Below are positions 43,879 through 52,914 of a stretch of DNA of 64,000 bases, one piece after another. Location of the stretch: positions 4,928,001 through 4,992,000 of the forward strand of contig CM000153.2 in NCBI GenBank assembly GCA_000004695.1, written 5' to 3'. Numbering within the stretch: the first letter of the stretch is position 1; each line of letters begins with the position of its first letter. Under the pieces are notes generated by a model. It worked only from the letters and a program-made list of their open reading frames with translations, did not search any database and was not told the origin of the DNA. This DNA is from Dictyostelium discoideum. Taxonomy: Eukaryota. A program made the translations under genes and the position numbers.

Positions 43879-43952
43879 GATGTTCTTAGAAGATGACATA
43901 AGAAGATCAGCAATTTAATTATTACAATTAAAAAATTAGATAATAAAAATGA

Positions 43953-44004
<52 letters not shown>

Positions 44005-44030
44005 CAAAGATTGATTCTTATTTAAAGTTT
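43879..44030 (+). promoter_or_regulatory. Conserved upstream block of SDR copy A (gatgttcttagaagatgacataagaagatcagcaatttaattattacaat..aaatgcaaagattgattcttatttaaag)
   Basis: The same block recurs, about 90% identical, upstream of copy C (50355..50490). A core version recurs at 50307..50343. A condensed inverted version (aattgttgatcttctaagaacat) lies at 50199..50221 upstream of the minus-strand copy B. Confidence 0.5.
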
Positions 44031-44111
44031 TTTTTTTTTTTATTTTTAATCATTAAATAAAAAACATACAAATAAATAAATAAAAAAGTAAAAAAAAAAA
44101 AAAAAATTAAA

Positions 44112-44996
44112 ATGAATTCAATTGAAAATAATAATAATAAAAATAATAATAAAAATAATAATAAGATTTGGTTAATCACAGGAACATCAAGTGGCATTGG
44201 TTTAGAATTAGTAAAGAAGTTGTTAACATATGGTTATAAAGTTTCAGCATTAACTCGTAGACCAGAAGAGATTGAAAAAGAGATTAAAGAAATTCAATTT
44301 GAAAAAGATAATTTATTAATTGTTAAAACTGATATTACAAATAATGAATCAGTAAAGAGTGCAGTAGAAGAGACTATTAAACAGTTTGGTAGAATTGATG
44401 TATTGGTGAATAATGCTGGTTATGGTTTGGTAGGTTCAATCGAAGAGTTATCAGATTCAGACGTTAGAAAGATATATGATGTAAATGTATTTGGTGTTTT
44501 AAATTTATTAAGAAATTCAACACCACATTTTAGAAAACAAAAATCAGGTTTAATAATTAACATATCCTCTCAAATGGGTTGGGATAATATGGAATATTAT
44601 TCAGCATATAGTTCAACTAAACATGCAGTTAATGCAATTACATTCTCTGCACAAAAAGAGTTAAAAGCATTTGGAGTGAATGTAATATTAGTTAGTCCAG
44701 GTGGATTTAGAACTGGTTTCGTTGCTGGTCAACAATCAAACTTTCAAGTACCTTCAAAATTTATTGATGAATATTCAACTCAATCATTCATTGAAATGTT
44801 TAATAAATATTCACCATATTCAAAAGGCGATCCTGAAAAAGCAGCTGAACTCTTAATTAAATTACCAACAATTGAAGAATTACCAAATAATTTATTCATT
44901 GGCTCTGATTCATTATCAGCTGCCAAACAACAATTACAATCACATTTATTAGAAGCTGAAAAATGGTCTGACCTTTCAATTTCAACTGATTACTAA
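44112..44996 (+). CDS. Classical short-chain dehydrogenase/reductase (SDR), copy A, 294 aa, single exon
   Basis: Motifs are KIWLITGTSSGIGLELVKKL (TGxxxGIG cofactor motif), VLVNNAGYG (NNAG), and S..YSAYSSTKHAV (catalytic S-Y-K) followed by LVSPGGFRT. It is near-identical to copies B and C. Confidence 0.9.
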   Translation: MNSIENNNNKNNNKNNNKIWLITGTSSGIGLELVKKLLTYGYKVSALTRRPEEIEKEIKEIQFEKDNLLIVKTDITNNESVKSAVEETIKQFGRIDVLVNNAGYGLVGSIEELSDSDVRKIYDVNVFGVLNLLRNSTPHFRKQKSGLIINISSQMGWDNMEYYSAYSSTKHAVNAITFSAQKELKAFGVNVILVSPGGFRTGFVAGQQSNFQVPSKFIDEYSTQSFIEMFNKYSPYSKGDPEKAAELLIKLPTIEELPNNLFIGSDSLSAAKQQLQSHLLEAEKWSDLSISTDY

Positions 44997-45255
44997 AGAT
45001 ATTAAAAAAAATAAAATAAAATTAAATAAACCTTTTTTGTAAATAATACGTTTGTGTAAATAATACTTTTGTGTATAATCTCTTGTGTGGTTTAATTATT
45101 GAAAAAAATATATATATACTAACAATAAAAATATACAAAAGATAAAACATCAAACAAATACTTATTTAAATAATAAAAAAGAATAGACAAAAATAAAATA
45201 AAATAAAAAAAAAATGAAAAGACAAAAATAAAAAAAAAGTCAAAACTCTTATATT

Positions 45256-45835
45256 TTAAATATTATTAAAAACTGAATTAACATCTATAAAAAAAATTGG
45301 AAAAATATAAACCATGTAATTATTTTCATTTTCAACAACATCATCACCATCATAATAAACCAAACTTGCAACCAATTCATCAATTTCATTTTGAATATTA
45401 GGATCTAAACAATCTTCATTTTCAATTACTTCAAAAATGAAATTGTTAATACTGAGGTTGTTTTTGAATGTGTCACAAGTTGAAAAGTTGCTAGAGTTAT
45501 TTGAAATTTCATTAATGGTATAATTAAAACTATCATTAACATCGGTTCCTTCTTCTCCACTTTTATCTTCTTTTATATTATTATTAATATTTTTATTATT
45601 AATATTATTATTATTGTTAATATCATTGTTGTTTTTGTTATTGTTATTGTTTGGTTTAGTTGGTGGTGCTATTTCATTATTACTATTATCTTGTTGAGTT
45701 TGATTTGTTTTATTTGAACTGTTACTATCATCACTATTACTATTATTATCATTATTTTTAGATGGTAAGTTTTCAGTTTTGATACCTCCATTTACTGTTT
45801 GTGATTCTAACTTATTATTATCATTATTTTTATTA

Positions 45836-45866
<31 letters not shown>

Positions 45867-45881
45867 AATTATTATTATTAA

Positions 45882-45924
<43 letters not shown>

Positions 45925-49989: not shown

Positions 49990-50120
49990 TTTAATTTATT
50001 TATTTTAATTTACTTTTTTATTTAAAAATTGAATATTTTTTATTTATTTGTTTATTTAATGTTTTTTATTTTAATGATTAAAAAAAAAAAAAAAAACTTT
50101 TAAATAAGAAACAATATATG

Positions 50121-50163
<43 letters not shown>

Positions 50164-50198
50164 ATTTTTGTCATCTAATTTTTTAATTGTAACAATTA

Positions 50199-50432
50199 AA
50201 TTGTTGATCTTCTAAGAACATTAAAAAAAAAAAAAAATAACCGCAAATTTATTTTTAAAAAATAAAAAATATCTTCTAAAACATTTTTTTTTATTTTTTT
50301 TTAATATTCTAAGAAGGTGACACAAAAAGATCAACAATTTCTCATTTTTTTTTTGATGTTCTAAGAAGATGACACAAGAAGATCAACAATTTAATTATTA
50401 CAATTTAAAAATTAGATAAAAAAAATGATTTA

Positions 50433-50465
<33 letters not shown>

Positions 50466-50490
50466 GCAAAGATTGATTCCTATTTAAAAG
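50199..50490. promoter_or_regulatory. Divergent SDR-B / SDR-C intergenic region carrying three copies of the TTCT(T)AGAAG(A/G)TGACA(C/T)AAGAAGATCA(A/G)CAATTT element (one inverted, two direct)
   Basis: Direct sequence comparison gives 50199..50221 (reverse complement atgttcttagaagatcaacaatt), 50307..50343 (ttctaagaaggtgacacaaaaagatcaacaatttc) and 50355..50392 (gatgttctaagaagatgacacaagaagatcaacaattt). Confidence 0.5.
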
Positions 50491-50557
50491 TTTTTTTTTT
50501 ACTCATTAAATAAAAAACATACAAATAATAAATAAATAAATAAATAAATAAATTAAA

Positions 50558-51442
50558 ATGAATTCAATTGAAAATAATAATAATAAAAATAATAATAAAA
50601 ATAATAATAAGATTTGGTTAATCACAGGAACATCAAGTGGCATTGGTTTAGAATTAGTAAAGAAGTTGTTAACATATGGTTATAAAGTTTCAGCATTAAC
50701 TCGTAGACCAGAAGAGATTGAAAAAGAGATTAAAGAAATTCAATTTGAAAAAGATAATTTATTAATTGTTAAAACTGATATTACAAATAATGAATCAGTA
50801 AAGAGTGCAGTAGAAGAGACTATTAAACAATTTGGTAGAATTGATGTGTTGGTAAATAATGCTGGTTATGGTTTGGTAGGTTCAATCGAAGAGTTATCAG
50901 ATTCAGACGTTAGAAAGATATATGATGTAAATGTATTTGGTGTTTTAAATTTATTAAGAAATTCAACACCACATTTTAGAAAACAAAAATCAGGTTTAAT
51001 AATTAACATATCCTCTCAAATGGGTTGGGATAATATGGAATATTATTCAGCATATAGTTCAACTAAACATGCAGTTAATGCAATTACATTCTCTGCACAA
51101 AAAGAGTTAAAAGCATTTGGAGTGAATGTAATATTAGTTAGTCCAGGTGGATTTAGAACTGGTTTCGTTGCTGGTCAACAATCAAACTTTCAAGTACCTT
51201 CAAAATTTATTGATGAATATTCAACTCAATCATTCATTGAAATGTTTAATAAATATTCACCATATTCAAAAGGCGATCCTGAAAAAGCAGCTGAACTCTT
51301 AATTAAATTACCAACAATTGAAGAATTACCAAATAATTTATTCATTGGCTCTGATTCATTATCAGCTGCCAAACAACAATTACAATCACATTTATTAGAA
51401 GCTGAAAAATGGTATGACCTTTCAATTTCAACTGATTACTAA
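50558..51442 (+). CDS. Classical SDR, copy C, 294 aa
   Basis: The protein is identical to copy A except ..EKWYDLS vs ..EKWSDLS. The nucleotide sequence differs at scattered synonymous sites (e.g. caa/cag, gtg/gta). Confidence 0.9.
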   Translation: MNSIENNNNKNNNKNNNKIWLITGTSSGIGLELVKKLLTYGYKVSALTRRPEEIEKEIKEIQFEKDNLLIVKTDITNNESVKSAVEETIKQFGRIDVLVNNAGYGLVGSIEELSDSDVRKIYDVNVFGVLNLLRNSTPHFRKQKSGLIINISSQMGWDNMEYYSAYSSTKHAVNAITFSAQKELKAFGVNVILVSPGGFRTGFVAGQQSNFQVPSKFIDEYSTQSFIEMFNKYSPYSKGDPEKAAELLIKLPTIEELPNNLFIGSDSLSAAKQQLQSHLLEAEKWYDLSISTDY

Positions 51443-52914
51443 AGATATTAGAAAAATAAATAATAAAATTAAATAAACCTTTTTGTAAATAATAAAACCT
51501 TTTAATTTCATTAAAAAAAAAAAAAAAAACAATAATAAATAAAAAAAAAAGATAACATGTTTGGTATGTTCGGTGGATTTATGTCACCCCTTAAGAACCC
51601 CTTTGGCCACTTCATCTCAATGGATGGAAACTATAATCTTTTCCAATCAACCCTATAGCTTGTAGTCACACAAACAGACTGTCTTCAAATTCATCTAATG
51701 GATTTGATGATTGAATTGTCCAGTAAGGAATATAGAATATGGTCTTTTTTTTATTAAAAAAATGAAAATATTAAAATAAAATGATTTTATTAGAATTTTT
51801 TATTATTTTTATTTATTACTATTATTATTATTATTATTATCATTATTATTATTATTATTATTATTATAATTATTTTTATAAAATAAATATTAATTAAAAA
51901 AATTAGTTTCCCTTTTAAACAAAAATCGATCAAAACTTGATGTAGAATTTTAATTTTAGAATAATATAACCAAATCAAATATTTATTTAAATTTTATGAA
52001 ATTATAAATAAAAATGGTGAAATTGGATTTGATTTACATTTTTCTAAAATTAAAATCCAACGACAAGTTTTGATGAATTATAATGTATTTTAAAGAGAAG
52101 ATGGCTTTTTTCATTAATTATCTACGAAATAATTTTGTAATATCATTATTAACTTTTGATTTGAAGGTTATGGATTTATGTATATCAATAGTATCCCAAA
52201 ATAATTACATCAAATGGTGTCAGCAAAGCCATGGCATCTTTCTTTGATGGAGTTAACTTGAGTACTTTGGTTATAACCATCGTTAACTTTCAAACCATAA
52301 TAATTTTTAATTTTACCAAATCATATTTAATATTTGGTTTGAAAATTAACGATGGTTATAACCAAAGTATATATTTAACTTTCAAAAATGATGGATCCCT
52401 ATGTTTCAATTACATATAAACCAAAATCAACTAAATCAAATTTAAAACAATTAATTATTTTTATAAATAAAATTAATGAAAAAATAAAAATAAAATAAAA
52501 TAAAACTTACTTTGTAATTTGGATTTTCAATCAAAGAATTACTATTTATTAAATCTATTTATTATTATTTTTATTATTATTATTGTTTTAATTCTTGTAT
52601 AATAATTTTTTTTTTTTTTTTTTTTTTTTTCACCATTTTTTAATTATTTTTATTTAATAATATTAATGTGCTACAAGTAACATCCATAAAATAGCAAGTG
52701 GTGTGTTCAAAGGGTAGGAGATTGTGTTTTTTTTTTAGGGTGTGGGAAAATTTTTTGAAAAAAAAAAAATAAAAAAAAACTAAATCAAAATCAATATTTC
52801 ATATTAATTTGGTTTTACTATAAAAACACTCAAGCAAATTATAAAACAAAAAAATTTGATAATAATTGTTTCTGGTGTTGTTTTTTTTGAAACCTTGTTT
52901 TATTATTCGGTTTT

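Follow-up and report, generated by a model that had tools for sequence, protein, structure and literature searches.

We identified three intact classical short-chain dehydrogenase/reductase (SDR) genes, in the order + - +, inside 7.3 kb of Dictyostelium discoideum DNA. They lie in a 64,000-nucleotide stretch (assembly GCA_000004695.1, contig CM000153.2, forward-strand positions 4,928,001 to 4,992,000) that is referred to here, at its full length, as the window, and they are designated copies A, B, and C. We consider it probable that they form an old three-unit array whose members exchange sequence with one another, are kept by purifying selection, and have taken part in repeat-mediated inversion. 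The starts of A and C are separated by 6446 bp; A and B are convergent. A tblastn search of the window revealed no fourth SDR copy or fragment. The array is an ordinary, previously undescribed instance of known processes, namely, tandem/inverted duplication, concerted evolution, repeat-mediated inversion, and birth-and-death turnover.

An earlier note, made from the letters of this DNA alone, had described the + - + triplication, with uninterrupted reading frames and a single amino acid difference between A and C. It had also argued for purifying selection, for gene-conversion-like similarity, and against a mere assembly duplication. Each of these points was borne out by the comparisons that follow. 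All three coding regions are intron-less, and they are 98.3 to 99.5% identical to one another. Of the 885 coding nucleotides, 4 distinguish A from C: three synonymous changes and one serine/tyrosine replacement at residue 286. Over the 834-nt core common to the triplet, there are 14 differences between A and B and 10 between B and C. The N termini of A and C are identical (MNSIEN...), and that of B differs (MDLIGN...). Sites unique within the triplet number 4 in A (including Ser286), 10 in B, and none in C, whose derived states are found partly in A and partly in B.

A protein search returned many dictyostelid relatives, and four syntenic and several paralogous loci were taken for comparison. 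The syntenic locus of the wild isolate FIW (L004, tags ACTFIW) has the same content as the window: a GATA gene, SDR(+), X, SDR(-), SDR(+), and TIG genes, where X is the single-copy open reading frame (ORF) lying between the convergent copies. The FIW copies are numbered FIW1 (left), FIW2 (middle), and FIW3 (right); FIW2 contains many frameshifts, and FIW3 has no ATG. In isolate FIR (L008, tags ACTFIR), two truncated, frameshifted SDR fragments flank X. In isolate FIY (L007, tags ACTFIY, "cf. discoideum"), a single SDR interrupted by a stop codon in KIW is followed by X and by a 3' fragment of a second copy. Distances at X place FIY as the outgroup and FIW and FIR as sisters. D. citrinum (L005) carries three direct tandem copies in a different context.

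A tree of the coding sequences grouped the copies by genome, with separate clusters for the window, FIW, and D. citrinum. Coding identity between the window and FIW is only 95.5 to 96.2%, below the values found within the window. Synonymous divergence (dS) is 0.017 to 0.066 within the window and 0.12 to 0.17 between the window and FIW, compared with 0.11 to 0.13 for the single-copy neighbor X. At 12 sites, the three window copies agree with one another and differ from FIW1/FIW3, and no site backs positional orthology. The leaders, which precede the start codons, tell a different story from the coding regions. Leader B matches the leader of FIW3 with 1 substitution in about 97 nt, leader C and the leader of FIW2 have in common ACTCATT, CAAATAATAAAT, and (AAAT)n, and leader A resembles that of FIW1. 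Since each leader type of the window has its own counterpart in FIW, the three units predate the split of the lineages. Further inspection of the triplet, with states polarized by outgroup, revealed derived states common to A and C at coding positions 60, 108, 267, and 604 and others common to B and C at 240 and probably at 222 and 812. These two sets, of few sites each, are interleaved and mutually incompatible, so that no exchange-free tree fits.

This pattern recalls the inverted Hsp70 pairs of Drosophila and the palindromes of the primate Y chromosome, the textbook cases of concerted evolution. As in those systems, paralogues within a genome are closer than positional orthologues, and homogenization is found mainly in the coding part while the flanks retain orthology. 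The window array differs in that it has three members (+ - +), encodes an ordinary metabolic enzyme, and lies in a genome of 78% A+T; its tracts are shorter than 1 kb.

Part of this evidence would also be expected under pure birth and death, in which recent lineage-specific duplications occurred in the AX4 lineage, in FIW, and in D. citrinum with no conversion. The lack of unique substitutions in C, as for a recent source or copy, fits that explanation, as does the variation in copy number and integrity (two fragments in FIR, one copy and a fragment in FIY, and three tandem copies elsewhere in D. citrinum), which makes turnover as such certain. Nevertheless, we regard young duplications as an unlikely explanation for the array. 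They sit poorly with the + - + arrangement at the same site in the window and FIW, with leader types that pair one to one across two genomes whose coding regions do not, and with the incompatible derived states inside the triplet. They also leave an upstream divergence of about 5.5% in all pairs to be explained, although A and C are 99.5% identical in their coding regions. The equal upstream divergence fits homogenization centered on the coding region.

The independent assembly of the FIW locus bears on whether one or two true copies were expanded to three through repeat misassembly, since it has three copies at the same site, with leaders of the A, B, and C types. In addition to their 4 coding differences, A and C of the window are distinguished by 11 upstream substitutions and 6 indel events, and their leaders and unique neighbors differ. 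An artifact would account for the absence of the exact A and C proteins from a 15-billion-protein collection and a gene-position index, in which respect they differ from copy B and from DDB_G0286853, encoded elsewhere in the window, both of which the protein collection lists under two assemblies. Alternatively, public annotations may have modeled A and C differently or missed them. No public contig encoding exactly B or C is on record, and an AX-type assembly (L009) found via DDB_G0286853 ends about 700 bp short of copy C. As far as sequence comparison reaches, an artifact appears excluded, and we judge it very improbable.

The comparison with FIW also suggested that the array has been rearranged. 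The window and FIY carry X in the minus orientation, and FIW and FIR carry it in the plus orientation; the outer flanks, toward the GATA gene on one side and the TIG genes on the other, are collinear across these haplotypes. FIW1 combines an A-type leader with the 3' flank of window copy B, FIW2 a C-type leader with the 3' flank of A, and FIW3 a B-type leader with the 3' flank of C. Two crossovers inside the coding repeats, one between A and B and one between B and C, would give exactly these pairings. The window and FIW haplotypes therefore appear to differ by two inversions with breakpoints inside the SDR genes, which have not been described previously. Homogenization of the coding regions blurs the exact crossover points. 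Given the branching order from the X distances, with FIY outside a FIW/FIR pair, the inversion of X is probably derived in the FIW/FIR branch. The human F8 int22h rearrangement is an inversion by nonallelic homologous recombination between inverted repeats. Here too, a unique interval is flipped between collinear outer flanks, with breakpoints in inverted repeats and chimeric copies; unlike int22h, the repeats measure only about 1.2 kb and are functional genes, and the rearrangement involves two neighboring intervals.

Selection on the copies was assessed from Nei-Gojobori estimates of the ratio of nonsynonymous to synonymous divergence (dN/dS), which is 0.09 for A-C, 0.07 for A-B, and 0.06 for B-C. 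The A-C comparison alone is marginal, with 1 of 4 changes nonsynonymous (P = 0.03). When the triplet is pooled, 3 of 14 changes are nonsynonymous against a neutral expectation of about 79%, giving a dN/dS of about 0.07 (P = 7e-6). The window copies are under purifying selection.

Several observations weigh against an old, exchanging, and inverting array, in addition to the absence of the exact A and C products noted above. The excess of upstream over synonymous divergence between A and C (11 of 202 against 3 of 175 sites) is suggestive only (Fisher P = 0.06). The comparison genomes are divergent lineages, with about 1.7% protein divergence at an unlinked paralogue, and not population samples. 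The second inversion (B × C) is read from about 100 nt of leader per copy and from FIW as the single other three-copy genome; the central spacers of the window and L004 have no alignable unique sequence that would confirm it, and conversion of the leaders could mimic it. Finally, no expression or enzymatic data on the three window SDRs were found in the literature.

Taken with these points, the favored reading of an old array leads to the following proposal. The copies would exchange sequence by homologous recombination. Noncrossover exchange, i.e., gene conversion, would hold the coding regions at their 98.3 to 99.5% identity, and purifying selection would clear amino acid changes. Crossover between opposed copies would invert the intervening DNA: an A × B crossover would flip X, and a B × C crossover would flip two leaders and the spacer between them. 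Promoters and leaders would be re-paired with 3' flanks because both breakpoints lie inside the coding repeats. All three copies presumably are expressed from TATA/T-run promoters, and their number may bring a dosage benefit. A more far-reaching idea, to which we give little credence, is that the + - + array acts as a recurrent recombination switch. In that case, flips would re-pair leaders and coding regions and reverse X, one intact donor would have "rescued" the three AX4/NC4 copies by conversion while the same locus was pseudogenized elsewhere, and the inversions might curb recombination around the neighboring TIG/Ig (tgr-like) genes, helping to keep divergent haplotypes of this region apart. 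A literature search on gene conversion and inversion in Dictyostelium returned nothing relevant.

The array does not represent a new kind of system, and its value is mainly practical. Short reads and most probes cannot separate the three genes, and expression, knockout, and variant data for DDB_G0286849 (copy B; see below) and its two neighbors need copy-aware handling. Loss of one copy by knockout would probably be masked by the remaining two. The locus also offers a compact example of concerted evolution and inversion in Dictyostelium, beside fast-evolving tgr-like genes, and it could mark structural haplotypes among isolates.

Table 1. Features of the SDR array and of the interval it spans (window positions)
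Feature	Position	Strand	Description
Promoter/leader A	43879..44111	+	Boxes TTCTTAGAAGATGACA (43883), AGAAGATCAGCAATTTAATT (43901), AAAATTAGATAATAAAAATGATTT (43932), and AATGCAAAGATTGATTCTTATTTAAA
SDR copy A	44112..44996	+	294 aa; intact, uninterrupted ORF
3' flank A	44997..45048	+	About 52 nt; carries AATAAA
ORF X	45256..47793	-	845 aa; single copy, Asn-rich tail, between convergent A and B
3' flank B	49050..49119	-	Long A-run, then TAAATAAACCTTTTTGTAAATAAT and a short echo of the coding-sequence end, CCTTTCAATTTCAAC
SDR copy B	49120..49989	-	289 aa; intact, uninterrupted ORF
Promoter/leader B	49990..50225	-	Same boxes, without 13 nt (GATGACACAAGAA) of box I/II; TATA-like box at 50099-50106
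Central spacer B/C	50226..50354		Extra partial box I/II copy TTCTAAGAAGGTGACACAAAAAGATCAACAATTT (50307-50340), C side
Promoter/leader C	50355..50557	+	Boxes at 50359, 50377, 50408, and 50463; TATA-like box at 50481
SDR copy C	50558..51442	+	294 aa; intact, uninterrupted ORF
3' flank C	51443..51500	+	From alignments and BLAST end points
TTCTTAGAA motif	43883-43898, 50307-50322, 50359-50374	+	
TTCTTAGAA motif	50203-50218	-	

The duplicated unit extends beyond the coding regions. Upstream homology begins at 43879 for A, at 50355 for C, and, on the minus strand, at about 50225 for B, i.e., 203 to 236 nt 5' of the ATG. The earlier note's figure of about 230 bp upstream thus stood, but its 3' flank of about 80 bp did not: the common 3' flank measures 50 to 70 nt (A-C, about 52 nt; B-C, about 70 nt). 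The upstream part is about 94 to 95% identical in every pair, with many homopolymer indels, and the likeness of A to C in this region is no greater than that of either to B. The note had also placed B inverted with respect to C across a shared promoter region; B and C are indeed head to head, and their ATGs are separated by 568 bp. This intergenic region contains inverted arms (50126-50213 and 50377-50464) that are 91% complementary.

Each copy is preceded by the same series of blocks, TTCTTAGAAGATGACA, AGAAGATCAACAATTTAATT, AAAATTAGATAATAAAAATGATTT, and AATGCAAAGATTGATTCTTATTTAAA with a T-run, followed by an A-rich leader of about 100 to 150 nt up to the ATG. In copy A, AATGCAAAGATTGATTCTTATTTAAA comes with the TATA-like TATTTAAA at 44019, ahead of the T-run; we take TATTTAAA and the T-run to be the core promoter, as is general for Dictyostelium. 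A box search showed that related SDR genes of D. citrinum, of other isolates, and of other loci also have the blocks at their 5' side, and because of this recurrence they are regarded as conserved promoter elements that travel with the gene. The leaders themselves are of three types: AATCATT...CATACAAATAAATAAAT...poly(A) in A, an insert ...CATTAAATAAACAAATAAATAAAAAATATTCAATTTTTAAAT... in B, and ACTCATT, CAAATAATAAAT, and (AAAT)6 in C. The (AAAT)6 of the copy C leader (50530-50553) has grown to about 25 units in the corresponding FIW copy (L004, approximately 9515-9615). Judged from these elements and from the AATAAA in the 3' flank, each copy is a complete predicted expression unit with promoter, leader, coding sequence, and poly(A) region.

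A palindrome, TTCTTAGAA (TTC-N3-GAA), stands at the head of the promoter block in all SDR copies, those of D. citrinum among them. In L001 to L006 it lies about 240 to 350 nt 5' of each SDR core, and in the window it occurs twice in tandem 5' of copy C. Its form recalls STAT/GAS-type sites. In B and C, but not in A, the poly(A)-signal region is followed by a short echo of the coding-sequence end (CCTTTCAATTTCAAC/CCTTTTAATTTCA; 49018-49050 and 51480-51500), perhaps a remnant of a former duplication junction.

Pfam domain analysis revealed that A, B, and C all match adh_short (PF00106) at about 1e-53. For A and B, residues 18 to 206 cover profile positions 1 to 189 of 195 (E = 1.2e-53; 182 bits against a cutoff of 26.6). 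The SDR motifs TGTSSGIG (residues 23 to 30) and NNAG (100 to 103) are present, as is the catalytic tetrad: Asn125 (in NVFG), the serine of NISSQ, and Tyr166 and Lys170 in Tyr166-SST-Lys170. The best solved relative is PDB entry 3M1A, a "putative dehydrogenase" (full-length match; E = 8.8e-38), with whose NISSFGG and YSATK the tetrad aligns. Basic residues directly after strand beta-2 mark a preference for NADP(H) in the SDR classification. The proteins have Arg49-Arg50 at this position, within ALTRRPE, and the enzyme is probably NADP(H) dependent.

The best NCBIfam model was PRK06180 ("oxidoreductase"), at 234 bits; none of the NCBIfam matches reaches its cutoff. As 234 bits is under the curated cutoff of 298, the protein is a relative and not a certified member of PRK06180. 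It is similar to the PRK06180/3M1A type over its full length, including a C-terminal extension ending ...STDY/TDF, and has in common with it the TGxxxGxG and NNAG motifs, the Asn/Ser/Tyr/Lys residues, and the Arg-Arg pair after beta-2; the window protein differs in being eukaryotic (dictyostelid) and in having an Asn-rich N-terminal tail. The earlier note had likened TGTSSGIG to ketoreductase-type SDRs, a comparison that was not upheld: the motif is the generic TGxxxGxG of classical SDRs, and the nearest relatives are of the PRK06180 type and not specifically ketoreductases. A ketoreductase of the polyketide synthase (PKS)/fatty acid synthase type was considered and rejected, with Pfam KR (PF08659) scoring 49.6 bits against 182 for adh_short in a stand-alone protein that has no PKS neighbor in the window. 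No characterized enzyme is near enough for a substrate to be transferred to the window SDRs, and 3M1A itself is without known function.

Outside Dictyostelia, the best approximately 100 matches to copy C (41 to 45% identity) are nearly all from Bacteroidota, among them Mucilaginibacter, Dyadobacter, Flavobacterium, Chitinophaga, and Chryseobacterium, or from metagenome contigs, and include no other eukaryote. The dictyostelid family could have come from bacteria long ago, or the distribution could reflect database bias. Within D. discoideum, the family member sdrA/SDR1 (DDB_G0290659), the sole named Dictyostelium SDR that the literature search turned up, is reported to be expressed in vegetative cells in a Cdk8-dependent manner (PMC3037916). 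Both sdrA and the AX4 paralogues P0009 (76% identical) and P0014 (66%) resemble the window SDRs in family and motifs and are intron-less genes for proteins of about 287 aa; they differ in being single genes at separate loci. No mention of DDB_G0286849 or of neighboring identifiers was found in the papers searched.

The copy B protein is identical, by protein search, to DDB_G0286849/XP_637526.1 of D. discoideum AX4, and the product of the ORF at 62193-62903 is identical to DDB_G0286853. Positions 52154 to 64000 of the window match a chromosome-scale assembly (GCA_054883475.1; 5.58 Mb) at 99.66% identity. Because of these identical products and this match, the array is placed on the AX4-type chromosome that carries both genes; it sits on D. 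discoideum chromosome 4. The window has a G+C content of 21.5%, long homopolymer runs, and Asn-rich ORFs. X has no Pfam match, the 1.3 kb separating X from B contains no ORF, and no tRNA genes were found in the window.

A second locus in the comparison set (L001 to L003 and L006) holds intact SDR copies that are 95 to 96% identical to those of the window, beside Arf-GTPase, GATA, and TgrO1-like genes. Together with the varied state of the syntenic loci, this indicates that the SDR family is turning over fast; three intact copies, as in the window, are the exception at this locus. At the second locus of wild isolates, the combination of SDR, Arf GTPase, GATA-like, and TgrO1-like genes is partly in tandem, which suggests a segmental duplication carrying the SDR together with tgr-like genes. 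In the FIY locus, a DDE_Tnp_4 transposase gene (L007, 16588-17350) occupies the position of copy C, next to a 5'-truncated copy B.

In the window, two GATA zinc-finger ORFs lie 5' of the array (35282-36091, plus strand, and 40885-41751, minus strand); the paralogous SDR locus of L006 likewise has a GATA gene beside it. Directly 3' of it are TIG/Ig (TgrO1-like) genes at 54659-55966 (-), 56153-57142 (-), and 57885-60428 (+). DDB_G0286853 (62193-62906), publicly named "hypothetical protein/transmembrane protein," matches Pfam CfaA_B_C, the counting factor-associated protein family (E = 2.6e-30). A scaffold gap of exactly 100 N is located at window positions 24301 to 24400, distant from the SDR array.

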